This document shows, one piece after another, positions 4,516 to 54,485 of a DNA stretch of 64,000 bases. The number at the start of each line of letters is the position of its first letter. Within the stretch, counting starts at the first letter, position 1. Source of the stretch: Candidatus Daviesbacteria bacterium (GTDB lineage: Bacteria; Patescibacteriota; Microgenomatia; Daviesbacterales; UBA10151); contig JACPKL010000001.1 in NCBI GenBank assembly GCA_016187035.1, forward strand, positions 14,607 to 78,606, given 5' to 3'. The position numbers and the translations under genes were made by a program. The notes under the pieces are model-generated. The model searched no databases, had not been told where the DNA came from, and was given only the letters and a program-made list of their open reading frames with translations.

Positions 4516-4519
4516 GAAT

Positions 4520-4640
4520 AATTTTTAATTTTAAGTTTTAAATTTTAATTGAATTTTAAATGTTTTAATGTTTTAAAATTTAATCATTTAGTCATTAAGA
4601 TTTGATTTTAAATTTAAAATTTGTACTTTAAAATTAATAC
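4520..4640. repeat. AT-rich intergenic array of degenerate heptamers (NTTTTAA-like)
   Basis: aatttta attttaa gttttaa attttaa ttgaatt ttaaatg ttttaat gttttaa ... between the PRTase start and the EndoQ stop. Confidence 0.55.
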
Positions 4641-4641
4641 T

Positions 4642-13100: not shown

Positions 13101-14194
13101 AGTAAATCCAAAAATTCATCAAATAGAAAACTAGCATCAAATGGGCCTGGACTTGCCTCAGGATGGAATTGAACAGCCAAGAATGGTTTTGTTTTATGCC
13201 TGATTCCTTCATTTGTACCGTCATTTAAATTAACAAACCATTCCTGCCAATCATTAGATAAAGATTTCATATCCACAGCAAAACCATGATTTTGAGAAGT
13301 GATAATGGCTTTTTTATTCTGCATATCTTGCACTGGCTGGTTTTGACCTCTGTGACCGAACTTCAATTTATAAGTATTGCCCCCTGCTGCTAAAGCCAGA
13401 ATTTGGCTGCCTAAACAAATACCAAATATTGGTATGTCTGTTTTCAGTAATTGTCTAGTTGTTTGGATGGTGGCTTTGGCTTGTTTTGGATCTCCTGGTC
13501 CTGGAGACACTGAGACTCCGTCAAAGTCCAATTTAGAATTTAAAGGATTAAAATCCCAAGGGACTTTGGTTATTTTTACGCCTCTTCTAACCAAACTTCT
13601 GATAATGTTCATCTTTACACCACAATCAACTAAGACTATATTTTTCTTACCACTGCCAAAAACTTCTACCTGATCTGTACTAACCTGTGGTAACACATTT
13701 CCTGCATTAGGATCATAATTTTGAATTTTGAATTTTGCTCTGCCGAAGGCAGTTTCGCTATGCGAAACATTTTGAATTTCTATCCTTCCCAGCATGACTC
13801 CATGCTCTCGCAGTTTCGTGGTTAATTGCCTGGTATCTATTCCCTGCAAAGCAGGTATTCCCTCTTCTTTAAGCCAAACATCTAGGTTCTTTTGACTTTC
13901 AAAGTGTGATGGATGATCAATATAATTTTGGACAATTAACCCTTTTACTTGAATTTTTTTTGATTCCCAAAACTCTGGATCTGGTACTCCATAATTTCCT
14001 ACCAGAGGATAGGTTAAAACCAGTATCTGTCCAAAATATGAAGGATCTGTCAAAGACTCAGGATAGCCTACCATACCAGTATTAAAAACCACCTCTCCTG
14101 AGGTACTCGAGAGTCCACTGGACTCTCTCCCCTCTGCCCCAAAAGATTGTCCTAAAAAAACTGTCCCATCGGACAGAATTAATTTTCCCTGCAT
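13097..14194 (-). CDS. carA: Carbamoyl-phosphate synthase small (glutaminase) subunit
   Basis: GEVVFNTGMVGYPESLTDPSY, with GATase triad context GICLGSQIL and VQFHPE. Start set at the ATG at 14194 (MQGKLILSDG). The track's longer ORF (to 14302) would overlap pyrB by 92 nt. Holds two in-frame repeat insertions. Confidence 0.9.
   Translation of the reverse strand: MQGKLILSDGTVFLGQSFGAEGRESSGLSSTSGEVVFNTGMVGYPESLTDPSYFGQILVLTYPLVGNYGVPDPEFWESKKIQVKGLIVQNYIDHPSHFESQKNLDVWLKEEGIPALQGIDTRQLTTKLREHGVMLGRIEIQNVSHSETAFGRAKFKIQNYDPNAGNVLPQVSTDQVEVFGSGKKNIVLVDCGVKMNIIRSLVRRGVKITKVPWDFNPLNSKLDFDGVSVSPGPGDPKQAKATIQTTRQLLKTDIPIFGICLGSQILALAAGGNTYKLKFGHRGQNQPVQDMQNKKAIITSQNHGFAVDMKSLSNDWQEWFVNLNDGTNEGIRHKTKPFLAVQFHPEASPGPFDASFLFDEFLDLL
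13718..13790. repeat. Composite insert in carA: heptamer tract (AATTTTG x3) plus two short hairpins plus a heptamer-like end
   Basis: AATTTTGAATTTTGAATTTTG-CTCTGCCGAAGGCAG-TTTCGCTATGCGAAA-CATTTTGAATTTC. Encodes IQNVSHSETAFGRAKFKIQNY in the inter-domain linker. Confidence 0.75.
14106..14133. repeat. Palindromic element family B core, in-frame in carA
   Basis: CTCGAGAGTCCACTGGACTCTCTCCCCT, a 28-mer identical to 40550-40577. Encodes GRESSGLSS. Confidence 0.85.
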
Positions 14195-16280: not shown

Positions 16281-17524
16281 GCTCCCTTTCCTGTCTGGTT
16301 TGCCAGCTTCATCTGTAAGGAATATACTTCTATAAACCCGGCTGATGCATTGGTATTAAATGGATATCCACCTAAGGAAAAGGACGTATGATCCAATCCA
16401 TATGGCGATGCCATTGCTACCACATCTGCTTTGCCTTTAAACAATTTGACTGTAACTTCACCTGTGGCTTTTTCATTAATAAAATCATTAAAAGCATTAA
16501 TTGCCTTCATAGCCGGATCAAACCATAAGGCTCCATAGCAAAGATAAGCCCATTTTGTATCTATCATTTCTTTTATTTCATTCAGGTTTCTGGTTGAGAC
16601 ATATTTTTCCAAAGCCTTATGAGCCAAAATGATTACATGGGCTGCGGGTAGATCGTAAACTCCACCATTTTTAACTCCAACTAACCTATCTTCAAACATA
16701 TAGACCACTCCCACTCCATGCTTCCCGGCAATCTTGTTTAACTTGATTGTTAATTTAGCCAGGCTTAATTTTTCTCCATTTAGGGCAATTGGCAGTCCTT
16801 TTTCAAAAGTGAGTTTAACTAGTTCCTCTTGATTTGGGGCATCTTTTGGCAGCGTGTGAGTTAAAAATTTCTCAACAGGAGCAATTAAATTTGGTTCTTC
16901 AATTTCTCCACCTTCCCAGGTAATTCCCCACATATTGTCATCACTGCTATAGGGAAAATTTACAGAGGCTGGGACAGGGATGCCATGTTTTTTGGCATAT
17001 TTAATCTCTTCATTTCTATCCATAGCCCATTCCCTGACAGGAGCAATGATTTTCATTTTAGGATCCTCTGTTAAAATATACCCATCAAGTCTCACCTGAT
17101 CATTACCTTTACCAGTACATCCGTGAGCTATGGCATCGCAGCCAAGTTTTTTTGCAATTTTGACAGCTTCTTTTCCTAAAATAGCCCTGCCCATAGGAGT
17201 TGACAGATGATAATTACCCTGATAAGAAGCATTGGCTTTTATACCTTTGGCTAAATATTCATTGGCAAATTCCTCTTTTAGATCCAAAACTATTGCCTCT
17301 ACAGCACCAAATTTAAGAGCTTTCTTTTTTATACTTTCCAAATCATCATGCTGTTGGCCTAAATCAGCTGTTAAAGCAACTACCTGACATTTATAATTGT
17401 CCTGTATCCATTTCAACATCACTGAGGTATCTAAGCCTCCTGAATAAAGAAGTAAAACCTTTTTCGCTTCTCCTGCTTTTCCTTCATATGAAGATACTTT
17501 TATATAATCAGTATTACTTTGCAT
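16277..17524 (-). CDS. argG: Argininosuccinate synthase
   Basis: VLLLYSGGLDTSV PP-loop and AHGCTGKGNDQVR. Confidence 0.95.
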   Translation of the reverse strand: MQSNTDYIKVSSYEGKAGEAKKVLLLYSGGLDTSVMLKWIQDNYKCQVVALTADLGQQHDDLESIKKKALKFGAVEAIVLDLKEEFANEYLAKGIKANASYQGNYHLSTPMGRAILGKEAVKIAKKLGCDAIAHGCTGKGNDQVRLDGYILTEDPKMKIIAPVREWAMDRNEEIKYAKKHGIPVPASVNFPYSSDDNMWGITWEGGEIEEPNLIAPVEKFLTHTLPKDAPNQEELVKLTFEKGLPIALNGEKLSLAKLTIKLNKIAGKHGVGVVYMFEDRLVGVKNGGVYDLPAAHVIILAHKALEKYVSTRNLNEIKEMIDTKWAYLCYGALWFDPAMKAINAFNDFINEKATGEVTVKLFKGKADVVAMASPYGLDHTSFSLGGYPFNTNASAGFIEVYSLQMKLANQTGKGA

Positions 17525-23312: not shown

Positions 23313-24163
23313 AAGTATGTTCCCCTACCCCCTAAGGAGATCTTCTTGATTTGAGTCCCACACATTTTACATTTCTGTCTATTTCTGCCGTAACAATAAG
23401 CATAATCTAAATAATAACCTTTCTGCCCTTCGCTGTCTACAAAATTGGCTCTGGTAGAACCCCCAAACTTAATACCATCTTTTAAGGACTTGACTATACC
23501 ATAGTACAGCTTCTTAAATTGTTCGTCAGAAAGCTGAGAAACTAATGTTGCCGGATTAATCCCTGTATCAAAGCAGGCCTCATTAGCATAAATATTGCCT
23601 ATTCCTGAAACAACAGATTGATCCATAATAGCTGCTTTCACAGACTGAGATTTATGATTTAAGAGATTAGATTTAAGAATCTGCCAAGTGAAACTCTTTT
23701 CCAAAGGCTCTGGACCCAACTTTTCAAACAAACGATTTACGATTAACGATTTACGATTAACGATTTTTATCCAGCCGAATTTTCTTTGATCGTTAAAGTA
23801 AAGGTGTGATCCATCGCTAAAACTAAAAATAACCCTAGTATGCTTATTGGGCATATCCCCTGTCATATCTTCTGTTGGATGTCCTCCAATAAATTTGCTG
23901 TTACCATTAAAAACTAATTGTCCGCTCATCTTTAGGTGAAATAAAAGAGTCAAATTACCAGTTATATCTATGCCTAAAATCTTAGCTCTTCTCCATACTT
24001 TGAGTACTTTTCTACCCTGTAGATCCTGAGTGTAGTCGAAGGGTTGTCCTTTTTCATTTTGGAAAGATTTTGGGGAATTTATCTGGATTTTAGTTAATTT
24101 CAATCCTACAATTCTTTTCTCTAATCCAATTTTTATAATTTCTACTTCAGGTAATTCTGGCAT
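23291..24163 (-). CDS. mutM: Formamidopyrimidine-DNA glycosylase
   Basis: MPELPEVE N-terminus, LGPEPL, and a C-terminal zinc finger CKMCG..CPNCQ. Five heptamer units encode KIVNRKSLIVNR. Confidence 0.9.
   Translation of the reverse strand: MPELPEVEIIKIGLEKRIVGLKLTKIQINSPKSFQNEKGQPFDYTQDLQGRKVLKVWRRAKILGIDITGNLTLLFHLKMSGQLVFNGNSKFIGGHPTEDMTGDMPNKHTRVIFSFSDGSHLYFNDQRKFGWIKIVNRKSLIVNRLFEKLGPEPLEKSFTWQILKSNLLNHKSQSVKAAIMDQSVVSGIGNIYANEACFDTGINPATLVSQLSDEQFKKLYYGIVKSLKDGIKFGGSTRANFVDSEGQKGYYLDYAYCYGRNRQKCKMCGTQIKKISLGGRGTYFCPNCQR
23733..23767. repeat. Heptamer tract CGATTTA/CGATTAA x5 (in fpg)
   Basis: CGATTTACGATTAACGATTTACGATTAACGATTTT encodes KIVNRKSLIVNR. Confidence 0.85.
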
Positions 24164-28231: not shown

Positions 28232-28317
28232 GTCATTGCGAGGGATGTACCATACGGTACGTCCCGTGGCAATCTTCCTACTTGAGGTGGAAGATTCCTC
28301 ACTACGTTCGCAGTGAC
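28232..28317. repeat. Palindromic element family A, intergenic copy (86 bp)
   Basis: GTCATTGCGAG-GGATGTACCATACGGTACGTCCC-GTGGCAATCTTCC-tacttgaggt-GGAAGATTCCTCAC-..TTCGCAGTGAC. The right terminus is degenerate. Lies between fba and glpX. Confidence 0.85.
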
Positions 28318-30321: not shown

Positions 30322-32529
30322 TTACTGTACGCAACCATCTCCCCATGGGCCTACATCATATTGATCACATCTTGTTGCCCCTTCATGATTTTGGCTACAC
30401 ACTGCATCAGATCCTTCTCTATCATTTGGATCACCATTAATCCAACAGGCTGTTTCAGGAGGTATGGGCACTTCCTCTGCTGGTTGTTCATCAGGTCTGG
30501 ACTTTTCAATATAAAAGGAGCTGTCTTCTTCGGAAGTTTCATCATTATAAATGATGATAATTTTAAATAAATTAAGATCATTTCTTAATTCAATTTCAGG
30601 ATTCTGATAACCTCCTTCGTCAGTATAAAGAATTATTTTATTTCCTTCATCACCAACAGGAACAAGATCCACCTCTTTAACTTTTTTAGCTATTTTAGCG
30701 ATAATTTTGATCCCGCCCACCTCAGTAGTTTCACCATTGTTAAGATCAGCTGAATAATCCTTAACATCCCCATCTTTTTCCACTACCCTGATATAGGTGA
30801 TATCATCATTTCCATTTTCCGGAGGACTATAGTATATTTCTTCTGTTTGCTCAGGATTATTTATTACCTCAGTTGTGGTGATCTCTTCCCCTTTGGCATC
30901 TTGTCTGTCCACAAAGTCAGCATCATTGGAGATTAACACCTGTTGAAGGTCATTATCCTGTGAAGAAGTTAGGTCATTCGGCTCCTCGGATGTGGTAGAT
31001 GTTGGGGTGGGTGTTAGGGTAGGATTGATTAAATGACCTGGACACTGAGGGTAGTTAAAGAAAACACTATAGATACCATCACGACTGTTATTAAACAATA
31101 GCAGCCGACGACGTCCACCATTAGGTCTAATATTACCTATTGGATCAACTACGGCAGAATCATAACCAGAACTGGAAAATTTTAAAAGTGCCTCTCCCTG
31201 GTTATTGGTAGTGGCTTTAGCCACTACTTCCTTAGTATCATCTTCTCTCTCCACTCTGACTGGCAGGTTAGGTACAGGAATCTGATCTGGATTACAGGTG
31301 ACAAGCGCTTTTACAGTTATGCTAATTGGTTTAGAAGTGTCAATTGTTTCCAAAGTTACGTTAATCGATTTGGATTTGTTTATAATGGGTTTAACCTTAC
31401 CGTTAATGCCAAGGAGGTTTGGAGAGTGGACTGATCTACTTGGATCATTCTTAGTTTGAATGGTTAGATCCCAGTAGGTTGTGAACTCTTTAGTAGCTTC
31501 ATCCCTAATCTTAATCGTAATACTTGAATCTGACCACTGCACGATGTCAAATTTAGTTAAATCTTCTACCAGAATAGAGTTGTACAATTTGATAGCGCCC
31601 GGCTCTTTGCCAAATCCCTTCCCTTCAATGATTACTTGTTGACCGGGATCAATTGCAGCAGGAGAAATCCTGCTGATAATTGAGTTTACAACAGAAGAGG
31701 TTGGTATAACCTGACTAAAGGCTCTGCTTTGGGGACTAATGATGAATGGATTCTTAAGTAGTTTTGATACCTCCGGGTTAACAATTGAGTTATTGATATT
31801 AGCATTGGGAAATAGAGCGGCGCCAGATCCGTCCCAAGACATCATATCATTGTAATGTTCTATTGCAGGCGGCAGCGGTTGCGGAGCATTTGGTTTGCAC
31901 TCTTTTAGGCTGGCAATTGAACAAGGATGAAAATAGGCATACTCAGAATTAACCAGGCCAAAAGCATGCCCCAGTTCATGCGCTATAGTGCCAAGACTAT
32001 AACTCTTTGCATAATCTGAATTTAGTTTAAGCAGATTATCTTCATCCAATATAGCATATGGAATATCCCACTCGTAAATCCAGGCGCAATTATTAAGAGA
32101 CTTTGATCCTATTACCCAGATTGCATAAATAATATTAGCCTGTTTTTTAAAATAGTCAAACCCGTCAGCTCTTGTAAAGACGTCACAGGCCTGCTTTGCG
32201 CCAGTTCTGGCTGATCCTTTCTGAGCAATCTTAACATCAACATCAAGATAGATTTTAAAAGTGGCGCCGTTTAGTCTCTTAGCGTAGAACTGCTGTACAT
32301 CTTTTAAAGCCTGAATAATTTGCGGTTTAAACCTTTCAATCTCTTTATCAGAAAAGTCGTTTTTATGATCTGCTAAAATAAAAAGTCCTGGTTTAACAAT
32401 ATATTCCTGGGCATAAACTTCTCTTGAAGTCACAAAGATTAACCCTAGACAAATTATAGAAAAGAAGCAAAGCTTTTCTACGAATAAGCAAAGCTTTTCT
32501 ACGAATAAAAAGCATCTATTAAATTTCAT
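30322..32529 (-). CDS. Secreted zinc-metalloprotease-like protein (HEXXH) with beta-rich middle region, acidic tract and Cys-rich C-terminus
   Basis: Signal-peptide-like N-terminus ending VYA-QE, HELGHAFGL motif, Thr/Pro linker TPTPTSTTSEEP and a C-terminal CWINGD..C..C..C module. The N-terminus contains a 21-bp perfect tandem duplication. Confidence 0.55.
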   Translation of the reverse strand: MKFNRCFLFVEKLCLFVEKLCFFSIICLGLIFVTSREVYAQEYIVKPGLFILADHKNDFSDKEIERFKPQIIQALKDVQQFYAKRLNGATFKIYLDVDVKIAQKGSARTGAKQACDVFTRADGFDYFKKQANIIYAIWVIGSKSLNNCAWIYEWDIPYAILDEDNLLKLNSDYAKSYSLGTIAHELGHAFGLVNSEYAYFHPCSIASLKECKPNAPQPLPPAIEHYNDMMSWDGSGAALFPNANINNSIVNPEVSKLLKNPFIISPQSRAFSQVIPTSSVVNSIISRISPAAIDPGQQVIIEGKGFGKEPGAIKLYNSILVEDLTKFDIVQWSDSSITIKIRDEATKEFTTYWDLTIQTKNDPSRSVHSPNLLGINGKVKPIINKSKSINVTLETIDTSKPISITVKALVTCNPDQIPVPNLPVRVEREDDTKEVVAKATTNNQGEALLKFSSSGYDSAVVDPIGNIRPNGGRRRLLLFNNSRDGIYSVFFNYPQCPGHLINPTLTPTPTSTTSEEPNDLTSSQDNDLQQVLISNDADFVDRQDAKGEEITTTEVINNPEQTEEIYYSPPENGNDDITYIRVVEKDGDVKDYSADLNNGETTEVGGIKIIAKIAKKVKEVDLVPVGDEGNKIILYTDEGGYQNPEIELRNDLNLFKIIIIYNDETSEEDSSFYIEKSRPDEQPAEEVPIPPETACWINGDPNDREGSDAVCSQNHEGATRCDQYDVGPWGDGCVQ
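32465..32506. repeat. Perfect 2 x 21-bp tandem duplication (AAGCAAAGCTTTTCTACGAAT)
   Basis: Read directly. Encodes the duplicated FVEKLCL/FVEKLCF at the N-terminus of the metalloprotease-like ORF. Confidence 0.9.
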
Positions 32530-33014
32530 ATTTGACCTGTCCAGGCTATACTACCATCAGGGTAAAATAATCTAATGATTGCGCCTTGGGCGTAAACAGT
32601 AGTCACACGGAAATCAAGGTCACCTTTAGCTGTTTGCAGTATCTTTTTAGCAGTTGTAGACCAACCTTTTTGTAAAAGCTCATTTTTATTGGAAACAACT
32701 TCCAGTCTATAAATAAATTCATTTGGATCATTCGGAGGTTGAGAAGGAAATAAAGGAGGCAGGTCGCCTTTTGTTGTACCTGTGCTAAGTTGAGAGATAA
32801 GATTAGTTTTAGGATTGTATTCTAGATCTACATAATATAGGTCTGGGTGAGTATCCGTAGCTAACTTATTTATCGTTGTTTGCTTAATTAATTTAGGTTG
32901 AATTTTAGTGGTAACACCAGCGCTTTTTAGAAAAAGAAAATATCCTCCAATACTAAACACTATAATGAGGGCTAAAATTATCAATAATATTCCCAGGAAT
33001 TTAGAGGTTTCCAC
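32526..33014 (-). CDS. Membrane-anchored/secreted hypothetical protein
   Basis: 162 aa with an N-terminal TM helix. Overlaps the downstream metalloprotease-like start by 4 nt. Confidence 0.45.
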   Translation of the reverse strand: METSKFLGILLIILALIIVFSIGGYFLFLKSAGVTTKIQPKLIKQTTINKLATDTHPDLYYVDLEYNPKTNLISQLSTGTTKGDLPPLFPSQPPNDPNEFIYRLEVVSNKNELLQKGWSTTAKKILQTAKGDLDFRVTTVYAQGAIIRLFYPDGSIAWTGQI

Positions 33015-33034: not shown

Positions 33035-34192
33035 TTAATACTCAGTCAAGTCCTCTAAATTTTTCTCCACCAATTCTAAAATTTCTTTTTTAAATCTAAC
33101 TTTTCCAAACTTCTCAGCGTTTTTGCGGCAGTCTTCGGTTTTGATACGATGATTCGTATCATCAAAGCGTTTAAGGACTTCTATTAAACTGTCCACAGAA
33201 ATTTGTCCTGGACAACCATATAATAATCCTGTTTTTCCATCTATGACTGTTTCTAAAAAGCCCCCGCTAAGCGGGGCTATGACCGGAGTTCCACAAACCT
33301 GGGCTTCTATTGAAGTAATCCCAAAATCCTCATCTTCTGAGGCCACAATTAAAGCCTGAGCATTAGACAGTAACTCTACTCTATCCTGATCAGATACCCA
33401 ACCCAGGAAAGTAGTTGGTAGTTGGTAGTTGGTAGCAAGCTTTTTTAGATTTTTTAATTCAGGACCAGATCCTGCTACTTTGAGTGGTAAACCTAATCTA
33501 CCACAAGCTTCTACCACTACCTCTACTCCCTTTCCCCTGACTAATCTACTCAGCACTAAATAATAAAATTTTGAATTTTGATTTGTATTTTTGATTTTTG
33601 AATTTTGAATTTTGAATTCTGCAAGATCCACTGGTGGGTAAATTACCACACTATCCCTTCTGTAAAATTTCTTGATCCGCTCTTGAACATTCTTAGAATT
33701 AGCAATTAAAATATCCGGTCTTTGGGAGGTCTCAAAATCATAAATTCTTAGAATATGATTAGCTAACTCCCCTAAAATTCTAGTAATAAAGTTTTTTTTA
33801 TAATTAAAAGAAGTCACATAACCATATAAAAACCTGGGCGGGGTATGAATGTAGCTTAAATGGAGCGTCTCGGGTTTAGTAATAACGGCTTTGGCAAAAT
33901 ATATGGCAGATGAAGAAATGACCAAATCATATTCAGATAAATCAAAACTTTCAAACATTAAACAAGCAAATACTCTGCAAGGAGACAACAGCTTATTGGC
34001 AAAAGGAAATTTTTGAAACCAGGAAGGCCTGATATCCCAATCCTTGAAACGCTTGCCATTCTCCCCCATTGCCTCCAAATTTACATAAGCAGTGTAGACA
34101 GGAGCATTAGGAAAGATTTCATGAAGGGCTTCTAAAACTCTTTCTGCTCCACCATATTCTCTTAAATAATCATGAGCTAATGCAACCTTCAT
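33035..34192 (-). CDS. Glycosyltransferase family 4 (GT-B fold)
   Basis: MKVALAHDYLREYGGAERV N-terminus and EDFGITSIEAQVCGTPVIA (EX7E region). Two in-frame heptamer tracts. Confidence 0.8.
   Translation of the reverse strand: MKVALAHDYLREYGGAERVLEALHEIFPNAPVYTAYVNLEAMGENGKRFKDWDIRPSWFQKFPFANKLLSPCRVFACLMFESFDLSEYDLVISSSAIYFAKAVITKPETLHLSYIHTPPRFLYGYVTSFNYKKNFITRILGELANHILRIYDFETSQRPDILIANSKNVQERIKKFYRRDSVVIYPPVDLAEFKIQNSKIKNTNQNSKFYYLVLSRLVRGKGVEVVVEACGRLGLPLKVAGSGPELKNLKKLATNYQLPTTFLGWVSDQDRVELLSNAQALIVASEDEDFGITSIEAQVCGTPVIAPLSGGFLETVIDGKTGLLYGCPGQISVDSLIEVLKRFDDTNHRIKTEDCRKNAEKFGKVRFKKEILELVEKNLEDLTEY
33411..33436. repeat. Heptamer tract GTAGTTG x3.7 (in GT4)
   Basis: GTAGTTGGTAGTTGGTAGTTGGTAGC encodes ATNYQLPTT. 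Confidence 0.85.
33567..33621. repeat. Heptamer tract AATTTTG/ATTTTTG, ~8 units (in GT4)
   Basis: AATTTTGAATTTTGATTTGTATTTTTGATTTTTGAATTTTGAATTTTGAATTCTG encodes FKIQNSKIKNTNQNSKF. The unit is the same as in the carA tract. Confidence 0.85.
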
Positions 34193-35892: not shown

Positions 35893-36102
35893 TACTTATC
35901 TCTAGATAATAAACTTCTTTCCTATGACCAATCCTATCTACATAAATAGTAGTTTGGTCTAGATAAAAAGCTATTCTATAATTCCCTACCCTAAACCTAT
36001 GAGTTGCAGGTGGTAGATTAATTAAGGGTTTTGAAAAGGTTAAAGGATCAGCTTGGTTTCTAAATCTTTCAGGCCACGGGGTGTAAATTTAGCATCAAAC
36101 AT
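35885..36102 (-). pseudogene. RelE/ParE-family toxin pseudogene (frameshift plus internal deletion)
   Basis: Own translation: frame a is MFDAKFTPRGLKDLETKLIL then stop. Frame b is DPLTFSKPLINLPPATHRFRVGNYRIAFYLDQTTIYVDRIGHRKEVYYLEISIK then stop, with the RelE/ParE signature RVGxYR..IGHRKEVY. The helical segment between the two parts is missing. Confidence 0.6.
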
Positions 36103-36489
36103 TTAGAGATTGTGCTACTTCTTCTAAAGGTATCCATCTGGTTTTTTTGGCATTCTTTATAGATGATTTTAAATCAGAGGCAAATTTTGGATTTACAGGT
36201 AGTTTTTCCTCAATTAAATCAATCAGCTTCCCGGCTGGATTATCAAAAGCTTTTTTAGGATCATTAACTCTTTTTTCAAATTCGTCATCTATTACTGTGC
36301 ATAAAGAGATGAAAGAATCCCTTCCAAAAACAAAACCTAAAGGATTATTATCTTTATCTACTACTACTGATGCATCAGATAAAGACAGATTATTCTCAGA
36401 TTTAGTGAATTTTTTAAAGGGAATTAACTTATTCATGGTATAAAAATTATACCATCTTTTAATTAAAAAGTGCCACTTTCACTTTTGAA
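35893..36489 (-). mobile_element. Inserted toxin-antitoxin cassette (decayed RelE/ParE toxin plus Phd/YefM-like antitoxin) bounded by ~42-bp direct repeats
   Basis: The segment between the two repeat copies contains only the TA pair. The right copy is a stop-containing duplicate of the 3' end of gene 35101-35892. Confidence 0.6.
36095..36436 (-). CDS. Putative antitoxin (Phd/YefM-like N-terminus)
   Basis: 113 aa. VVVDKDNNPLGFVFGRDSFISLCTVIDDEFE resembles the Phd/YefM beta-alpha core. Its stop overlaps the start of the decayed toxin. Confidence 0.5.
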   Translation of the reverse strand: MNKLIPFKKFTKSENNLSLSDASVVVDKDNNPLGFVFGRDSFISLCTVIDDEFEKRVNDPKKAFDNPAGKLIDLIEEKLPVNPKFASDLKSSIKNAKKTRWIPLEEVAQSLNV

Positions 36490-36531
36490 TTTATAACTTA
36501 GATGAGGCCAGTTAAAAAAATGGTTATTTAA
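36490..36531. repeat. Direct repeat, right copy
   Basis: See 35851-35892. Abuts the stop of ORF 36535-37017. Confidence 0.85.
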
Positions 36532-36534
36532 ATC

Positions 36535-37017
36535 TTATTCATTTCTGCTTAACGTTCTAGGAATTGTATATAAGGAACTGGGTAGGTTTCTTATTAAAGT
36601 GTCAACCCCTCTGATATTACTCACTCTAGCCCCTAAAAACTCTTGCTGATAAGTATGACCTGCTGCCAGAAATATCCCTCCCTCGTCTATCATCAAGCTG
36701 GTTGATCCACTGCCAGTTCTATAGATATTATCAACAACTGCCTTAGCTCTAGTTTCAACAGAACCTTTATTGACTCTTAGTTGCTCAAGTAGTTTAGGAA
36801 GGTAATTAGGGTCTAACGGTTCTTGATTTTCTACTCTTTGGAGTGTTCCAAATGTATCCTGTTCTGTATCTGAAAGATAGCTGGTAGATTGAGCATCCTT
36901 AGGAAATATTGTTTGTTCATCAGGAAAATGTTCCAATCCTGAATGAAGACGATCATAACCTAACTTTGCAGCAGTACCAACGGCAGCTATTCCAGTTAGT
37001 CCAACCAGAATATCCAT
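36535..37017 (-). CDS. Hypothetical membrane-anchored protein
   Basis: ATG at 37017 (MDILVGLTGIAAVGTAAKL, a TM helix) is preferred over the TTG at 37053. No confident family. K-poor composition unlike its neighbours. Confidence 0.4.
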   Translation of the reverse strand: MDILVGLTGIAAVGTAAKLGYDRLHSGLEHFPDEQTIFPKDAQSTSYLSDTEQDTFGTLQRVENQEPLDPNYLPKLLEQLRVNKGSVETRAKAVVDNIYRTGSGSTSLMIDEGGIFLAAGHTYQQEFLGARVSNIRGVDTLIRNLPSSLYTIPRTLSRNE

Positions 37018-37022
37018 CCTTG

Positions 37023-39347
37023 TTAATTTTCCTCCGGCTTCATTTCTCCCCAAGTTTTGCCTGCTTTTAAATCAACTACCACTGGTACTGATAATTCTAG
37101 AGCATTTTCCATTTTTTCTTTGACCATTTTAGCAATCTGGCGGACTTGTGGTGAGCCTGCCGAACCATCACATTCAAACAAAAGCTCATCATGAACTTGA
37201 AGAATTAACTTACAGTTATCAGTTTTCGGTTTTCTGTTTTCAGATATTGGTTTGCCGGTTTTCTGTTTACCAGATTGACTGATAACTGATGAACTTTCAT
37301 CCGACGACTGACCACTGAGAACCGATAACTCCTTATCAATTTCCACCATAGCCTTTTTAATCATGTCAGCTGAAGATCCCTGAATAGGATGATTAATTGC
37401 TGCTCTTTCTCCTTGAGATCTGATCATTCTATTTGAGGCTTTTAGCTCCGGCATATATCTTTTTCTACCCCAGATAGTCTCTACATAACCATTTTCATAC
37501 CCAAAAGCTAAAGTTTGCTCCATCCATTCCCGTACTTTAGGAAACTGCTCAAAATATTCCACTATGTATTGACGGGCTACTTCATATTCCACTCCTAGTT
37601 GCCTGCTTAAAGCATGTGGACCCTGGCCATAAAGAGTAGCAAAATTCATGGTTTTCCCAACATTTCTTTGCTCATAAGAAACCTTTCCCACAGGTACTTT
37701 AAAGATCTTTGCAGCAGTGGCGCTGTGGATATCCAAGCCTGCTAAAAAAGCCTGTTTTAATCCTGGATCATCTGCCAGATGAGCCATAATCCGAAGTTCT
37801 ATCTGAGAATAATCAGCTCCAAATAATACTTTTCCCTTGGGAGCAATAAAGGCTTTTCTGACCTCTCCTCCAAGTGTACCCCTGATTGGGATATTTTGAA
37901 GGTTGGGGTCCTGGGAAGAAACACGTCCTGTGGCAGCTCCTTCCACATTAAAAGTAGAATGTATTCTGCCGTCTTCCCCAACTGATTTTGGTAAAGCGTC
38001 AATATAGGTGGAAACTAACTTGAAAAGTTGGCGGTATTCCAACAAAAGGGGTACAGCAGGGTGAGCTATAGATAATTCTTTCAAAGTCTCCTCATTTGTT
38101 GACCTGCCGGTTTTGGTTTTTTTAAAAACAGGCAATTTTAACTCGTCAAAAAGCACTACCTGCAGTTGTTTTGGGCTGTTCAGATTAAACTGATGACCTA
38201 TTTTAGAGTAAATTTCTTTTTCAATATTAGTTAATTTAGCTTTTAAATCGGTCCCAAGCTTATTTAAAAACTTAAGATTTATTAATATTCCTGACTTGGA
38301 CATTTTTTCCAAAACCGGCTGGACTTGGAGATCTAAATCAGTAGTGTCATTGCGAGGAAGTTTACCCTGAGCCGATTCGGCCTGAGGGCTCACGGCCTCG
38401 AAGGCTTGTCGAAGGGTGGCAATCTTCCCACTTGAGGTGGAAGATTCCCACGGCCCTTCGGGCCTCGGAATGACAGGAAAAGGTAATCTGTTTATCAAGC
38501 TCTTAAATTCCAATTCTTCGAATAATTCTCTTACCTTATTAGCATCGTAATCATGTACTCTACAAGCTGCTAAATCTAGCTTGACAGGGGCATTTGTATC
38601 TAGAGTAGCTAATTTTTTACTCATCACAGCTGATTCTGCTCCCTCGGCCAGTAACTTTTGCATTCTTTCGGGTAAGGTCTTCAAATTTTTAGGCAAGTAG
38701 ATTTTCTCAATAGAACCGAATTGGTGAATCAATTTAGTGGCTGTTACATCTCCTATACCAGCTACCCCTGGAATGTTATCTGAAGCATCTCCTGCCAAAG
38801 CTTTGTAATCTATCATCTGAGGAGGCATAAAACCATATTTAGCTACAAACTCCTCTACTCCATAAAGGCCCACATCCTGTAAAGTTTTTTTTGGCATTAA
38901 TACTTTAATATTTTCATCAATCAGCTGCATAATATCCCTGTCACCCGTGACTATTATAACTTCTAATTTTTGAGCTTTGAGCTTTGAGCTTTGAGTTGCC
39001 AAAGCGCCTATTAAATCATCTGCCTCATAACCTGACAGCCTAAACTCAGGAATATTAAAAGCTTTCACTACCTGATAAACCCTATCATACTGGGAAGATA
39101 AACCATCATCAGCCGGTCCCCTGGTAGCTTTATACTGAGTGTAAGCTTGATGCCTGAATGTTGGCCCTTTTTCATCCCAGGCAATGGCTAAAAAATCAGG
39201 TTTTAATTCATTTAAAGTCCGAAGAAGCATTGAGGAAAAACCATATACAGCATTAATTAACTCACCATAAGATGTGGAAAAAGGAGGAGTGGCGTGATAA
39301 GCCCGATGAAGTAAAGCATTCCCATCAACCAAAACCAAATGTTTCAT
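37023..39347 (-). CDS. polA: DNA polymerase I: 5'-nuclease plus polymerase domains, no 3'-5' exonuclease domain
   Basis: N-terminal 5'-3' exonuclease (VLVDGNALLHRAYHA, GDRDIMQL, GVAGIGDVTATKLI). Pol A motifs DYSQIELRI, RNVGKTMNFATLYG and QVHDELLFE. The two domains are joined by a translated 129-bp palindromic element. A second ~40-aa heptamer-derived insert precedes QVHDE. Confidence 0.9.
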   Translation of the reverse strand: MKHLVLVDGNALLHRAYHATPPFSTSYGELINAVYGFSSMLLRTLNELKPDFLAIAWDEKGPTFRHQAYTQYKATRGPADDGLSSQYDRVYQVVKAFNIPEFRLSGYEADDLIGALATQSSKLKAQKLEVIIVTGDRDIMQLIDENIKVLMPKKTLQDVGLYGVEEFVAKYGFMPPQMIDYKALAGDASDNIPGVAGIGDVTATKLIHQFGSIEKIYLPKNLKTLPERMQKLLAEGAESAVMSKKLATLDTNAPVKLDLAACRVHDYDANKVRELFEELEFKSLINRLPFPVIPRPEGPWESSTSSGKIATLRQAFEAVSPQAESAQGKLPRNDTTDLDLQVQPVLEKMSKSGILINLKFLNKLGTDLKAKLTNIEKEIYSKIGHQFNLNSPKQLQVVLFDELKLPVFKKTKTGRSTNEETLKELSIAHPAVPLLLEYRQLFKLVSTYIDALPKSVGEDGRIHSTFNVEGAATGRVSSQDPNLQNIPIRGTLGGEVRKAFIAPKGKVLFGADYSQIELRIMAHLADDPGLKQAFLAGLDIHSATAAKIFKVPVGKVSYEQRNVGKTMNFATLYGQGPHALSRQLGVEYEVARQYIVEYFEQFPKVREWMEQTLAFGYENGYVETIWGRKRYMPELKASNRMIRSQGERAAINHPIQGSSADMIKKAMVEIDKELSVLSGQSSDESSSVISQSGKQKTGKPISENRKPKTDNCKLILQVHDELLFECDGSAGSPQVRQIAKMVKEKMENALELSVPVVVDLKAGKTWGEMKPEEN
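37212..37330. repeat. Degenerate heptamer array with inverted ends (CAGTTATCAG / CTGATAACTG) in polA
   Basis: CAGTTAT CAGTTTT CGGTTTT CTGTTTT CAGATAT TGGTTTG CCGGTTT TCTGTTT ACCAGAT TGACTGA TAACTGA ... encodes LSGQSSDESSSVISQSGKQKTGKPISENRKPKTDN just upstream of QVHDELLFE. Confidence 0.7.
38346..38474. repeat. Palindromic element family A, 129 bp, in-frame in polA
   Basis: GTCATTGCGAG..(extra GC-rich hairpins CCTGAGCCGATTCGGCCTGAGGGCTCACGGCCTCGAAGGC)..GTGGCAATCTTCCCACTTGAGGTGGAAGATTCCCAC-GGCCCTTCGGGCC-TCGGAATGAC. Translated as VIPRPEGPWESSTSSGKIATLRQAFEAVSPQAESAQGKLPRND. Confidence 0.9.
38971..38995. repeat. Heptamer tract TGAGCTT x3.5 (in polA)
   Basis: TGAGCTTTGAGCTTTGAGCTTTGAG encodes SKLKAQKLE. 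Confidence 0.85.
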
Positions 39348-40240
39348 CGCCAGACACCCCTTTTCCTCTTTGGTAACAAGTCTGCTATTTTCTTCATAAC
39401 CAGATCACTTTGTTTCCTGATATGTTCTTTAACCTGTCCATACCTTACCCTTTCTTCATTTTTCTCCTCAGCAGTTAATGTTTCTACTTGAGTCCTACTA
39501 GCTGCTTTACCATAACAGGCAGCATACCGCTTCTCAAAAGATTCCCATGCCTCTCTATAAGTCTGATCAAGATTAAAAGGTTGACCAATAATAACTCTTA
39601 CTTTAGGCCTTTGTCCTTTTATCAATCTTTTGATTGTACCCCCTACATCTGCTGACATAGCAACTGGCTGGTCTGTCTGAATATCAACAGCTACAGGTAA
39701 CAGAGTAGCATTAGTTCGTTGTGCTAAATAAGCAGCACCCAGACCTGACTTACCGGGAAGCTCCCATGACAAACCTGTAATATTAGATAAAGGTTCATGT
39801 GCAGATATGATTAAATCTGTTCCTTTTTGTAATGCCTCTGTCATCTTATCAAAATTCTCAGGGTTAAACCGAAATCGTAAATGGCCTGTTTCTTCATCCG
39901 GGTAGGCATCCAACGGGAAAAAGTGCTCTTTCCCTACCAGTTTTATTGGTAGGGCAGTCCTGAGATCACGGAAATTATCAGATTGCAAAGTTATACCCAG
40001 CCCATGGCCAGGACGGACCTTTTTTAACTGGGGCCTTAAAACGCTTTCAACTGTCTGCACATCCGCATCTGAAAAGTGTGAAGTCGCAATAATTAATGGT
40101 AAATGCGCTGGTATTTCACCCAGATCTTCTGCTCCCAAAACTTCAGAGACTCTAAAAACCAAGCTTTTATTTAATCCCATCAATACATCAAAACGTCGTT
40201 GTCCTGGAGCTTCCGGACCACCCCCTACACCTTCTGCCAT
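39344..40240 (-). CDS. Hypothetical protein; weak PlsC-like acyltransferase motif
   Basis: SHFSDAD fits HX4D. Start set at the ATG at 40240 (MAEGVGGGPE) because the longer ORF overlaps the upstream gene by 79 nt. The family call is tentative. Confidence 0.35.
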   Translation of the reverse strand: MAEGVGGGPEAPGQRRFDVLMGLNKSLVFRVSEVLGAEDLGEIPAHLPLIIATSHFSDADVQTVESVLRPQLKKVRPGHGLGITLQSDNFRDLRTALPIKLVGKEHFFPLDAYPDEETGHLRFRFNPENFDKMTEALQKGTDLIISAHEPLSNITGLSWELPGKSGLGAAYLAQRTNATLLPVAVDIQTDQPVAMSADVGGTIKRLIKGQRPKVRVIIGQPFNLDQTYREAWESFEKRYAACYGKAASRTQVETLTAEEKNEERVRYGQVKEHIRKQSDLVMKKIADLLPKRKRGVWR

Positions 40241-51200: not shown

Positions 51201-51950
51201 CTACCAAGGCAATTTTCTGGGTGAAGTCCCATCATATTCAATCTCTTCACTAGGTATTCTTCTGAATGGTTTTTCTCTGACCCATTCTTCAAATACATGG
51301 GCTATGAGTCCTACTACCCTACCGATTAAGAAAAATCCCTTGCCTAACCTGTAGTCAAAGCCCATATCAGAAATAACAGCTGCTATGGCTCCATCCACAT
51401 TAACAGGTATTTTTTTACCTTTCTTTTGCTCTAAAACCTGTTCTACTTTAACTGCCAACTCACAATATTCCCCAAAAAAACCTAATTTTTTAGCCTTTTC
51501 AAAAATCTGTTTAGCTCTGGGATCCTCCGTCTTATAAACTTTGTGTCCAAATCCAGCAATTCTGTCTCCTGCTGCTAATACTTTTTCCACCAATTTTTCA
51601 GCAGACAGGCCCATCTGCAGCAGTCTGGCACATTCTTCAATTGCTCCTCCATGATATTCCCCTATTCCTAATACTCCTGCTGCCACAGCAGCCTGCATGG
51701 GATTGCCGGCAGAGGCAGAATTCCTGGCATTAGTTGTGGATGGCGGACCCATGCCATTATCAATGGTGGAGATTAAAATAGCATCCAGCATAGCTTTCTC
51801 TTTTTCTGTAGGCAGCTCCCCTTTTAATTCCAGCCAGATAGCCGCTGTGAAGTTTACCTTATCCATCAACTCAGTCACTTTATAACCATGAATCAAAGTC
51901 TCCCCATCAACAATTCCAGCAATAGATGTTTTCCACTTTTTATCAGACAT
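51201..51950 (-). CDS. Short citrate-synthase-family protein (citryl-CoA lyase-like)
   Basis: GFGHKVYKTEDPRA citrate-synthase signature in a ~250-aa protein. ATG at 51950 (MSDKKWK) is preferred over the TTG at 51986. Confidence 0.65.
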   Translation of the reverse strand: MSDKKWKTSIAGIVDGETLIHGYKVTELMDKVNFTAAIWLELKGELPTEKEKAMLDAILISTIDNGMGPPSTTNARNSASAGNPMQAAVAAGVLGIGEYHGGAIEECARLLQMGLSAEKLVEKVLAAGDRIAGFGHKVYKTEDPRAKQIFEKAKKLGFFGEYCELAVKVEQVLEQKKGKKIPVNVDGAIAAVISDMGFDYRLGKGFFLIGRVVGLIAHVFEEWVREKPFRRIPSEEIEYDGTSPRKLPW

Positions 51951-51959
51951 AATAGTAAC

Positions 51960-52024
51960 TAGTAACAAGTACAGTAAAGGTAACAAGTTGAAATAAAAAT
52001 AACTTGTTACTTGTGCCTTGTTAC
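51960..52024. repeat. Long imperfect hairpin built from heptamer modules (ACTTGTT/ACTTGTG/CCTTGTT and complement)
   Basis: TAGTAACAAGTACAGTAAAGGTAACAAGT - tgaaataaaaata - ACTTGTTACTTGTGCCTTGTTACTA. Lies between the four-helix-bundle fragment stop and the ccl-like start. Confidence 0.7.
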
Positions 52025-52263
52025 TATTTCTGTGAAATGTATAACCTCCAAATTATATGTCCTGTTTCTGATCTTAGCAAGCAGACATCCTGAAATTCTG
52101 TTTCTTTTATTAATTTTCTCTGGTAAGAAAACTCAAGCAAATATTCCGTTTCTGCAAGCGAGCCTAAGGCTATAGATAAAAATCTATAAAATTCTTTCTT
52201 ACTGTTTCTAGCATGCCCTTCAACAATGTTTGTTGGAACTGATAAGCACGCTCTTTGTAGTTG
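52024..52263 (-). pseudogene. 5'-truncated four-helix-bundle protein gene (23S rRNA intervening-sequence protein family)
   Basis: Not in the ORF track (contains no Met). Own translation: QLQRACLSVPTNIVEGHARNSKKEFYRFLSIALGSLAETEYLLEFSYQRKLIKETEFQDVCLLRSETGHIIWRLYISQK then stop. Matches the family core RA..S...NI.EG..R.S.KEF..FL.IA.GS..E. It begins right after the SucD-like stop, and roughly 40 N-terminal codons are absent. Confidence 0.7.
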
Positions 52264-53169: not shown

Positions 53170-53202
53170 ATGAATTCTTTACTCCTTTTTTTATCTTCGT
53201 AG

Positions 53203-53252
53203 ATTTAAGATGTAAGAATTAAGAATTAAGATCTTAAATCGTAAATCATAAA
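53203..53252. repeat. Intergenic heptamer tract with central palindrome TTAAGATCTTAA
   Basis: ATTTAAG ATGTAAG AATTAAG AATTAAG ATCTTAA ATCGTAA ATCATAA ATC. Confidence 0.7.
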
Positions 53253-54485
53253 TCACTTAACTCCATATGCTAACTCCACCATGATTTTTGCAGTTGAAGT
53301 CATTGGAGTCTCCCTGCCAAATATATGAAAATCAAACCCTTCCTTACGGCCTACTCTTTTTAGCTCCTCAAAAGCTTCCTGATCCCTTGGCCCGCCTCTT
53401 CTTATCACAATTGGGTAAGCAGGCTTTGGTTTAATTTCCCTAAGCCCTTCTACAAAGCCCATTAAAGTTTCATAAATATCAGTAAAATTGGCTGTGCCTC
53501 CCACAAACCAACAACCCTTAAGTCCTGGTTTTCCTAGAACAATTTTAGTTAATTTTTTCAATTTTTCTCTGGGAGGGTTGCCTGAGTGTTCAGTATAATT
53601 AGCCGCCCTTCCTCCAAAAGTTACTAAAGCATCCATGTTAACTATAGACCCTCCACCTCCTGCAGCAATGACTGCAATGTCTCCATCCCGAAGGTCCCAA
53701 TAAACAGAGCCTGCAGTACCTCTGTGATCTCCTTCATCTATTTTTCTGGCTTCAATTTCAGCCTCAGTTGGGGGTCTGCCAAACAAATTTCTTTGGGGAA
53801 ATTTAATTTCCCTTCTAAAGTCTGCATCATCGTCCAAGATAACTTTGGCATCTAAAGCATAGACTCTCTTGTCATTGCGAGGTCCGCCCTGGCGGACCGT
53901 GGCAATCTTTCCATTTGAGATGGAAGATTCCTCGCTTATGCTCGGAATGACAGAAGTGGTAGAAACTACCAAAGGATTTATTTCTGCCAGTTCTAAGTCA
54001 TATTTTGTGAATACCTCCCAAAGCTCTGTAATAGTATCTGTAAATTGGACATAATGTTCAACGATCGTTGAAGGTAACGTCATATTTAGAGGATCAACAG
54101 GAAAACTCTCTGCGCCTTTTTCCTCTACTCCTGTCCCACCTTTGCCAAAAGTTAACACAGGTCCTCTTGTTGCTGTGGAGTATGAGAAAGACAGATAATA
54201 CTCCTTACCAACATCAACCATTTGTTCAACTAAAACCTTCTCCACCTTCTCATTGTTAATTGTCTTTGAAAGTAATTCTTCAATCTTAAATCTTAAATCT
54301 TCCATCTTCTCTACCACCAAAATCCCCCCAGCTTGTGCTCTTTTTCCAGACAAAACTTGAGCTTTCAAAACCAAAGGAAGTTTTAAGGTTACTTCCTGAT
54401 CTGCAGATTCTAAGAGTTGTGACTGGGGAACATTAATCCCACAACTTTTAAAAAGTTGTTTGCCTTCAAATTCGAAGAGTTGCAT
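53253..54485 (-). CDS. Succinyl-CoA synthetase beta-subunit / ATP-citrate-lyase beta-like ATP-grasp protein
   Basis: N-terminal ATP-grasp (MQLFEFEGKQLFKSCGI). C-terminal ligase-CoA-like IAAGGGGSIVNMDALVTFGGRAANYTEHSGNP. Carries an 81-bp family-A element in-frame between the halves. Confidence 0.75.
   Translation of the reverse strand: MQLFEFEGKQLFKSCGINVPQSQLLESADQEVTLKLPLVLKAQVLSGKRAQAGGILVVEKMEDLRFKIEELLSKTINNEKVEKVLVEQMVDVGKEYYLSFSYSTATRGPVLTFGKGGTGVEEKGAESFPVDPLNMTLPSTIVEHYVQFTDTITELWEVFTKYDLELAEINPLVVSTTSVIPSISEESSISNGKIATVRQGGPRNDKRVYALDAKVILDDDADFRREIKFPQRNLFGRPPTEAEIEARKIDEGDHRGTAGSVYWDLRDGDIAVIAAGGGGSIVNMDALVTFGGRAANYTEHSGNPPREKLKKLTKIVLGKPGLKGCWFVGGTANFTDIYETLMGFVEGLREIKPKPAYPIVIRRGGPRDQEAFEELKRVGRKEGFDFHIFGRETPMTSTAKIMVELAYGVK
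53871..53951. repeat. Palindromic element family A, 81 bp, in-frame in the SucC-like gene
   Basis: GTCATTGCGAG-GTCCGCCCTGGCGGAC-CGTGGCAATCTTTCCATTTGAGATGGAAGATTCCTC-GCTTATG-CTCGGAATGAC. Translated as SVIPSISEESSISNGKIATVRQGGPRNDK. Confidence 0.9.
54285..54301. repeat. Heptamer tract CTTAAAT x2.4 (in the SucC-like gene)
   Basis: See 4229-4259. Confidence 0.8.

Follow-up and report, generated by a model that had tools for sequence, protein, structure and literature searches.

Tandem direct repeats of the heptamer TAACTGA have been described in Beggiatoaceae, cyanobacteria, and Bacteroidetes (MacGregor 2015, PMC4679880). They are located mainly between genes, just upstream of start codons, with few cases in open reading frames (ORFs), at the periphery of the protein; repeats in the reverse orientation are translated into LSVISYQ, the forward orientation has stop codons in all frames, and a single indirect (inverted) repeat was recorded among 170 sets, the others being direct repeats of one unit (PMC4679880). 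A protein-binding regulatory role has been proposed for these repeats (PMC4679880). Heptameric simple sequence repeats (SSRs) are over-represented in bacterial genomes, with polymerase slippage as the hypothesized cause, and the GGGAATC repeats of Xanthomonas are described as intergenic (cited in PMC4692102). The Rickettsia palindromic elements (RPEs) are palindromic repeats present in frame within genes ('protein-coding palindromes') at positions compatible with the protein fold, and also between genes (PMC10969869). In human DNA polymerase (Pol) theta, Insert 3 is a 33-aa segment of the palm, described as a conserved loop, without which abasic sites and thymine glycol are no longer bypassed (PMC9962433); it was judged unlikely to reach DNA (PMC2441791). 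Here, we describe a 64-kb stretch of DNA (hereafter, the window) from Candidatus Daviesbacteria, a lineage of the candidate phyla radiation (CPR/Patescibacteria), in which the polA gene contains an insert directly before polymerase motif C. This insert is likely to be an in-frame inverted heptamer array, i.e. repeat DNA that became fixed at a permissive, disordered loop of the palm, and one of many such arrays in the genes of Daviesbacteria.

An inverted heptamer array before motif C of PolA

The polA product of the window is 100% identical to NCBI HYW41_00300 of Candidatus Daviesbacteria. The insert and its surroundings are located as follows.

37023..39347, minus strand: polA, a 2325-nt ORF encoding 774 aa, with a 5'-nuclease and a family A polymerase domain (ORF list, Pfam, and alignments)
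37185..37199, minus strand: motif C (QVHDE, residues 717-721), intact, with catalytic D720 and E721 (alignments, 60 homologs)
37215..37325, minus strand: the insert, codons 675-711 (SVLSGQSSDESSSVISQSGKQKTGKPISENRKPKTDN), absent from Taq and Mycobacterium Pol I (break in the HMMER alignment)
37317..37430, minus strand: the long helix ahead of the insert, residues 640-677 (secondary structure of the AlphaFold2 (AF2) model)

The alignment with Taq Pol I (E 2e-152) stops at residue 674 of the query (Taq 772) and restarts at residue 712 (Taq 777), placing 37 residues opposite 4, a net gain of ~33 aa, and that with Mycobacterium smegmatis Pol1 breaks at the same place. An insertion at this position had been proposed in an earlier note on this DNA, and the Taq alignment confirms it; the size given there (about 40 aa) was slightly too high, the extra length being 29-36 aa depending on the reference. 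The peptide, which had been read correctly (..LSVLSGQSSDESSSVISQSGKQKTGKPISENRKPKTDN-CKLILQVHDELLFE), directly precedes KLILQVHDE, is rich in Ser, Lys, and Asn, and carries 7 basic and 4 acidic residues.

The heptameric origin and the inverted-repeat structure claimed in the same note were both borne out. Tandem Repeats Finder (TRF) identified a period of 7 at 37222-37268 (6.6 copies, 65% matches, score 36). Self-identity across 37212-37330 is 0.55 at lag 7 and 0.47 at lag 14, compared with 0.26 +/- 0.04 in dinucleotide shuffles, none of which (0/2000) reached the observed value, and the segment ranks third by heptamer self-identity among 3195 windows scanned in the 64 kb. The insert thus has the tandem 7-nt period of TAACTGA- and STRR-type repeats. 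A perfect 11-nt inverted repeat, CAGTTATCAGT (37213-37223) and ACTGATAACTG (37278-37288), links one end of the insert with its middle (2000 shuffles gave repeats of 10 nt at most, with a mean of 5.8), and a weaker 23-nt pair with 78% complementarity links both ends. When folded as single-stranded DNA, the insert reaches -14.3 kcal/mol (z = -2.6), a value equalled by 3 of 200 shuffles. It is, in short, a hairpin-capable palindrome lying in frame in a housekeeping gene. Its components are the following.

37213..37223, no strand assigned: inverted-repeat arm of pair I2, 11 nt, 100% complementary to its partner at 37278-37288
37278..37288, no strand assigned: second arm of pair I2, partner of 37213-37223
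37308..37330, no strand assigned: outer inverted-repeat arm of pair I1, 23 nt, 78% complementary to its partner at 37221-37243
37270..37328, minus strand: 5' half of the insert, in coding sense GTTATCG GTTCTCA GTGGTCA GTCGTCG .. AGTTATC AGTCAAT (heptamer register)
37222..37268, minus strand: 3' half of the insert, in coding sense CAGAAAA CCGAAAA CTGATAA, approximately the reverse complement of the 5' half (TRF; direct-repeat families D1 and D2)

The units of the 5' half appear to be degenerate TAACTGA-type heptamers in the 'reverse' orientation, translated in a manner similar to LSVISYQ; a perfect TAACTGA is present on the plus strand at 37283-37289, together with degenerate units (SVLSGQ, SVISQS). 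The second arm, which must stay open, is degenerate, in keeping with the stops that forward TAACTGA has in all frames. A known RNA family as the cause of the hairpin was dropped, since a search of 36000-40000 against Rfam at E <= 1 yielded no match.

In the AF2 model, the helix at residues 640-677 is followed by coil at 678-711, with a predicted local distance difference test (pLDDT) score below 50 at 681-707, and by the motif C strands (712-718 and 721-727). The insert is placed as a predicted disordered coil between a confident helix and a confident strand, at what would be a surface position that leaves the fold undisturbed. An orthologous insert is present in two independent assemblies, those of the relatives L016 and P0082. 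In L016, the closest species-level relative, the polA gene (9986-13681) reaches 1232 aa through a LAGLIDADG intein in the polymerase domain, as is likewise the case for protein P0101; the intein site lies just ahead of ..AADMIKK, where the helix leading into the insert begins, in the same gene that carries the orthologous heptamer insert (LSVLSGQSSVFGQSVVGLSVTGKRKTGKLNSENRKQKTDN).

The polymerase itself has the features of a family A enzyme of the bacterial Pol I type: a DNA_pol_A domain (PF00476, E 4.9e-141), a KlenTaq-like fold, and motifs A (DYSQIELR), B (R..K...NF..LYG), and C (QVHDE). Across 60 homologs, the window protein among them, there is no variation at D512, Y513, S514, Q515, E517, L518, R519, R561, K565, Y573, and G574, at Q717, H719, D720, and E721 of motif C, or at the acidic 5'-nuclease residues, and the polymerase domain of the AF2 model fits KlenTaq and Bst with a root mean square deviation of ~3 A. 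In the codons flanking the insert, comparison with the closest relative gave a non-synonymous divergence (pN) of 0.16 and a synonymous divergence (pS) of 0.68, indicating strong purifying selection. With intact polymerase and 5'-nuclease active sites, PolA looks intact and the enzyme should therefore work, and we infer that its activity has been retained. Among the 10 ORFs of the 64-kb window scanned against Pfam, no other polymerase was found.

The usual three-domain layout of Pol I (5'-nuclease, 3'-5' exonuclease, active or vestigial, and polymerase) does not apply to this protein. Both 5'-3' exonuclease domains were detected by Pfam (PF02739 and PF01367), the same search of PolA matched no 3'-5' exonuclease domain, and residues 301-338 stand opposite Taq 300-433 in the alignment. 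All of the 120 closest homologs are 696-777 aa in length, except one with an intein, and other CPR PolA proteins likewise appear short (matches of ~780 aa).

The motif C loop across polymerases and its substitution pattern

Loop length was measured as the number of residues between ..QGxxAD and QVHDE. For 29 non-CPR bacteria this spacing amounts to 22-24 aa, and for 21 CPR genomes outside Daviesbacteria to 26 aa; it is nearly constant and short in ordinary Pol I, as the earlier note had supposed. In 115 Daviesbacteria homologs, it ranges from 19 to 57 aa (median, 36), being expanded in 89 and 24 aa or less in the other 26 (23%), and the 55 aa of the window protein is the second longest. An alignment of 60 relatives contains two large indel hot spots, one in this loop, with 0-37 residues, and the other in the linker between the domains, with 0-46. 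Human Pol theta (the sequence used is 100% identical to PDB chains 7zus, 4x0q, and 4x0p) is collinear with the window protein by BLASTP, 126 aa matching the C-terminal 128 aa, and its spacing is 56 aa, as against 55 aa; the alignment revealed no meaningful sequence similarity within Insert 3 and the window insert. A low-complexity insertion so close to the active site had been considered unexpected in a functional polymerase. This view finds no support, given the invariance of the catalytic residues in 60 relatives, the predicted disorder of the loop, the 89 expanded loops among the 115 Daviesbacteria homologs, and the 33-aa Insert 3 of Pol theta; loops of comparable length, which the note itself had named as refuting, occur in Daviesbacteria (hypervariable, 19-57 aa) and in human Pol theta, an active family A enzyme (56 aa).

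Loop DNA was taken from 14 Daviesbacteria species genomes in which the loop was locatable and expanded, giving 15 inserts with that of the window. The DNA hairpins of 14 of these have z values between -2 and -7.6, L009 being borderline (z = -1.97), and most of the 15 consist of a heptamer array followed by complementary heptamers. The units found in relatives include the following.

Arrays with one unit given: AGCTATC x4 (L001), AGTCGTC x3 (L012), and ATTTCAA x4 (L011)
Paired units: AGTCTAG with CTAGACT (L002, L008, and L010) and GGTAACA with CCTGTAA (L007)

A classic repetitive extragenic palindromic (REP)-like palindrome takes the place of heptamers in L006 and others (VIPAKAGIH..SRIKSGMTD). 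At least 10 unrelated sequence families thus occupy one site in the 115 homologs, always between ..EIDKEL and the Cys before xLILQVHDE. Daviesbacteria inserts open with ELSVISYQ, ELSAISYQ, or ELSVVSRQ; the loops are Lys-rich, with a mean net charge of +1.7; and the CTGTAAC arrays of L015 and L007 keep register with the adjoining native codons Cys-Asn-Leu. Counting gains and losses from a neighbour-joining ordering of the 115 homologs was dropped, because sequences that are ~70% identical and star-like make the tree too weak for such counts; the insert families were seen only to be interspersed. Small GC-rich hairpins nested in heptamer arrays were observed in L005 (~2950-2975, polA loop, CCAACCTCCGGTTGG, adding PPTSGWY) and L018 (~16580-16603, glycosyltransferase loop, CCTCCCCTTCGGGGGCCC, adding PPLRGP), which we take to resemble the small dispersed repeats inside the heptamer repeats of Nostoc.

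When the 15 inserts were folded as RNA, the sense strands summed to -362 kcal/mol and the antisense strands to -400 kcal/mol, with few G-U pairs in the stems. An mRNA-specific hairpin was dropped because the sense strand folds no better than the antisense strand and G-U pairs are few, which points to palindromes of the DNA rather than the mRNA type.

Substitutions were counted in eight polA pairs with alignable inserts and in five pairs of a glycosyltransferase gene that carries a comparable insert (see below), with gapped columns excluded. In polA, pS was 0.06-0.46 in the insert vs 0.52-0.84 in the flank, and pN was 0.14-0.38 vs 0.08-0.17. In the glycosyltransferase, pS was 0.18-0.31 in the insert vs 0.71-0.79 in the flank, and pN was about equal (0.11-0.22 vs 0.10-0.29). 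Overall nucleotide identity between the window and L016 is similar for the insert (74-85%) and the gene (77-85%), and the difference in conservation appears only after synonymous and non-synonymous sites are separated. Judged from these counts, the insert peptide is apparently evolving near-neutrally, with its nucleotides seemingly constrained at every codon position, a combination that would place the constraint on the DNA; either the DNA itself matters or the copies have been repeatedly homogenized. Together with the AF2 model, the counts suggest a disordered surface loop in which the peptide, as protein, is selected weakly or not at all.

Heptamer arrays elsewhere in the window and in Daviesbacteria

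Per 100 kb, the window has 20.3 period-7 tandem arrays and 20 Daviesbacteria loci have 21.8, compared with 3.1 in shuffled sequences, 3.5 in other CPR loci, and 3.2 in non-CPR loci. They are thus ~7-fold enriched and represent a Daviesbacteria-wide feature, of which the polA insert is one case, a connection that the earlier note did not make. In total, 106 arrays with 74 distinct units were identified in 422 kb, and 94 of them (89%) are located within open frames of 100 aa or more. The commonest copy number is 4 (40 arrays), in contrast to the steady fall seen in the controls; such a peak would be expected from a reading-frame filter, since three added units amount to +21 nt and keep the frame. 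Pairing with an inverted array, which gives a DNA palindrome, is frequent, and other genes contain related arrays. A link between the lack of the 3'-5' exonuclease domain and the heptamer excess was dropped, as other CPR PolA proteins are similarly short and their loci have no period-7 excess.

In the window, in-frame arrays were found in the genes for an ATP-dependent DNA ligase, CarA, Fpg, a GT4 glycosyltransferase (ORF 33035..34192, minus strand; two arrays), a phosphoribosyltransferase, an ATP-grasp enzyme, and the 5'-nuclease domain of PolA.

4228-4259: phosphoribosyltransferase array, encoding KDLRFKIGDLR
6288-6319: ATP-dependent DNA ligase array, encoding QVQSSKFKVQS
13717-13737: CarA array, encoding AKFKIQNY, inside a 12-aa insertion relative to human CPS1
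23732-23766: Fpg array, encoding KIVNRKSLIVNR
33411-33435: GT4 glycosyltransferase array (GTAGTTG) x 3.6, encoding ATNYQLPTT
33567-33618: GT4 glycosyltransferase array (AATTTTG) x 7.6 (CAAAATT array), encoding EFKIQNSKIKNTNQNSKF
54273-54309: ATP-grasp enzyme array, encoding EDLRFKIEEL

The Fpg array was rejected as an insertion, being just +1 aa relative to solved Fpg structures; heptamer arrays can, it appears from this alignment, also overwrite native segments. At site 33567-33618 of the glycosyltransferase gene, which neighbours polA, a CAGTCGT-type palindrome (ISRQSSVVRKSESSRLKADS) stands instead in the orthologs from L001, L007, L012, and L018, so that the repeat DNA within one and the same protein loop differs between species. 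The CAGTCGT-type element is present in polA loops, at this fixed site in four genomes, and in intergenic DNA; it and the AGTCTAG-type element are multi-copy in other genomes, over 16-32 nt. Three inverted arrays of the window match the polA insert in architecture.

4519-4645: (TAATTTT) x 9.6 facing (ATTTAAA) x 4.4, with 58-nt arms, 72% complementary; intergenic
51951-52028: TAGTAAC facing ACTTGTT, with 21-nt arms, 86% complementary; inside a 283-aa stop-free frame (51204-52052, minus strand) and possibly coding
53201-53255: (AGATTTA) x 5 facing (ATCATAA) x 3.6; intergenic

PolA itself contains two further repeat tracts.

38346..38486, minus strand: a second in-frame palindrome, a GC-rich REP-like compound hairpin encoding a 47-aa linker (LPFPVIPRPEGPWESSTSSGKIATLRQAFEAVSPQAESAQGKLPRND), PolA residues 288-334
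38969..38995, minus strand: a third repeat tract, (TTTGAGC) x 3.9, perfect, encoding TQSSKLKAQK (TRF), in a variable loop of the 5'-nuclease domain

The 47-aa linker occupies the position of the 3'-5' exonuclease domain in Pol I and is predicted to be disordered (AF2 pLDDT < 50 at 294-333). Its DNA (GTCATTCCGAGG ... CCTCGCAATGAC) folds at -33.1 kcal/mol (z = -4.5), which none of 100 shuffles equalled, and along the window polA, DNA folding stands out only here and at the loop before motif C. The 33-nt core of the linker, GTGGCAATCTTCC.ACTTGAGGTGGAAGATTCC, recurs at 28266-28298 and 53899-53931 (97% and 91% identity), both extra copies having at their flanks gtcattgcgagg and an inverted counterpart that is imperfect (cagtgac, cggaatgac). 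In the manner of Rickettsia RPEs, the one at 53899-53931 lies in frame in an ATP-grasp/citrate-binding ORF (53253..54485; ..SEESSISNGKIATVRQGGPRNDK..). The third tract falls in a length-variable region of 1-12 aa (PolA residues 121-127).

Several other features of the window were recorded. The ORF 36535..37053 (minus strand; 172 aa, TTG start) overlaps the final 31 nt of polA (37023-37053), and its true start may be further downstream. The ORF 30322-32529 (minus strand; 735 aa) has no Pfam match at E <= 1e-5. A perfect 21-nt tandem duplication (AAGCAAAGCTTTTCTACGAAT x 2.1) at 32465-32508, equal in length to three heptamers and with no internal 7-nt period, lies close to where ORF 32526..33014 starts and ORF 30322..32529 ends.

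Origin of the insert and comparison with known systems

On the explanation that we favour, namely repeat DNA fixed in a tolerant loop, the first half of the insert would derive from degenerate TAACTGA-type 7-base units in the stop-free orientation and the second half from roughly complementary units, together forming an imperfect DNA palindrome. Such arrays would be generated throughout Daviesbacteria genomes by slippage duplication in 7-nt steps combined with inverted duplication or template switching and with some spread or copying between sites; slippage and template switching as the mechanism are what we infer. Within genes, the survivors would be changes that keep the frame (multiples of 21 nt, 7 aa) at places where the protein tolerates them, and the loop between helix 640-677 and the motif C strand would be one of two tolerant sites in this PolA. 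Several points weigh against this explanation. A search with blastn-short for further copies of the insert in the 64-kb window returned only chance-level matches of 9-12 nt; it is therefore through shared architecture and through relatives that the insert is linked to the dispersed elements. The low synonymous divergence of the inserts is not predicted by pure neutral junk and points to constraint or homogenization acting on the DNA, beyond slippage alone, and the alignments behind these rates are short and of low complexity (21-39 codons), from pairs that are only partly independent. Nor does the explanation account for a mechanism favouring exactly 7 nt.

The synonymous sites of the insert, 2-9 times less diverged than the flank in the eight polA and five glycosyltransferase pairs, speak for the idea that the hairpin or heptamer DNA is itself functional, as a protein-binding site, a cruciform or recombination structure, or a replication or transcription signal, with the peptide as a by-product. 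The palindromic architecture, which is kept although the sequences differ between lineages, and the regulatory protein-binding role proposed for TAACTGA repeats (PMC4679880) agree with it. We nevertheless hold it to be rather unlikely: 26 of the 115 relatives have no expansion at the site, at least 10 unrelated sequences and 74 heptamer units speak against one recognition motif, there is neither an Rfam match nor a sense-strand folding preference, and divergence could also have been reduced by recurrent copying from one dispersed site to another. Similar doubt attaches to the transposition into polA of a discrete mobile element, such as a MITE or an RPE-like 'protein-coding palindrome', with the loop as a repeatedly struck site. 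Near-identical 25-32-nt segments do occur in polA, the glycosyltransferase gene, and intergenic DNA of single genomes (three sites in L012), the element of L010 recurs in L018, classic REP-like palindromes occupy the same loop in some relatives (L006), the window has the 33-nt core of the polA linker three times, once in frame within the ATP-grasp gene, and Rickettsia RPEs behave in this way (PMC10969869). Yet the window insert has no other copy in the 64 kb and hence does not belong there to a multi-copy, dispersed family whose sequence and ends are conserved, no target-site duplication, defined termini, or linked transposase was seen, and the 74 units and the arrays in register with native codons (CTGTAAC in L015 and L007) fit local duplication better.

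An adaptive role for the peptide, as an addition to the palm like Insert 3 of Pol theta (DNA binding, lesion bypass, or partners) that perhaps compensates for the missing 3'-5' exonuclease domain, appears more doubtful still. Its position and length equal those of Insert 3, which is needed for lesion bypass, and basic residues prevail in the Daviesbacteria loops and in the window insert, whereas the similar non-synonymous and synonymous rates of the insert, the unrelated sequence families, the 23% of relatives with no insert, and the predicted disorder of a loop whose Pol theta counterpart was judged unlikely to reach DNA (PMC2441791) argue against it. A decaying pseudogene or an assembly artefact, which a low-complexity repeat near the active site in a metagenome-assembled genome might suggest, is hardly credible in view of the open frame of 774 aa with all catalytic residues, the excess of pS over pN in the flank, and the orthologous inserts in the independent assemblies L016 and P0082. 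A more far-reaching proposal, to which we give little weight, is that a lineage-specific system in Daviesbacteria makes heptamer palindromes and conserves their nucleotides as functional DNA elements, even near the active sites of essential genes. If so, the elements would be recognized by a dedicated protein or used in the control of recombination or replication, they would form a new class of CPR 'protein-coding palindromes', and the loop before motif C of polA would be a recurrent docking site for them.

If the insert is repeat DNA in a tolerated disordered loop, at the place of Insert 3 in Pol theta, it gives no reason to call polA defective. Daviesbacteria represent a small-genome CPR lineage with a ~7-fold excess of heptamer arrays that lie mostly in frame in housekeeping genes, are often palindromic, and strike the same protein loops repeatedly. 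They offer a natural system for studying the bacterial preference for heptamers, on which the literature consulted has not settled, the creation of protein loops by repeat DNA, and the sites that tolerate 7-40 extra residues. Annotators and structure predictors are thereby warned that a low-complexity loop of a CPR protein may be a trace left by repeat DNA and not a functional motif.

Bacterial heptamer SSRs resemble the Daviesbacteria arrays in the period-7 excess, in some inverted pairs capable of forming stem-loops, and in great variation of length and sequence between close relatives, but those cases are described as intergenic (PMC4692102). Our literature search, which was incomplete and is weak evidence of novelty, found no report of in-frame heptamer or palindromic repeats in CPR, Patescibacteria, or Daviesbacteria. 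The likeness to TAACTGA repeats and to the cyanobacterial STRR heptamers lies in the tandem 7-nt units. The window insert has one perfect TAACTGA and degenerate variants, and the ELSVISYQ and ELSAISYQ starts of relatives' inserts correspond exactly to the LSVISYQ peptide of the reverse repeats, but many other, unrelated units occur in the same genomes. Daviesbacteria differ in that 89% of the arrays are inside ORFs, with 74 units, often as inverted pairs, and in a CPR host; a mainly intergenic location upstream of start codons does not apply to them (94 of 106 arrays are in frames), and the polA insert is intragenic.

The window insert and Insert 3 of Pol theta sit in one and the same loop, which leads from the helix after ..QGSAAD to the strand of motif C, in family A polymerases whose catalytic residues are intact. 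Insert 3 is described as conserved, whereas in Daviesbacteria the loop is repeat-derived, hypervariable, and apparently near-neutral, with 23% of relatives having none. Like the Daviesbacteria elements, Rickettsia RPEs are hairpin-capable repeat DNA that lies both between genes and, in frame, within housekeeping genes that are unrelated to one another. RPEs are ~150 bp in length and fall into ten defined families, each with a conserved peptide, whereas the Daviesbacteria inserts are 40-130 nt, built of heptamers, and extremely diverse, with no conserved peptide; apart from the shared architecture, no relationship in sequence was seen, nor was one looked for.

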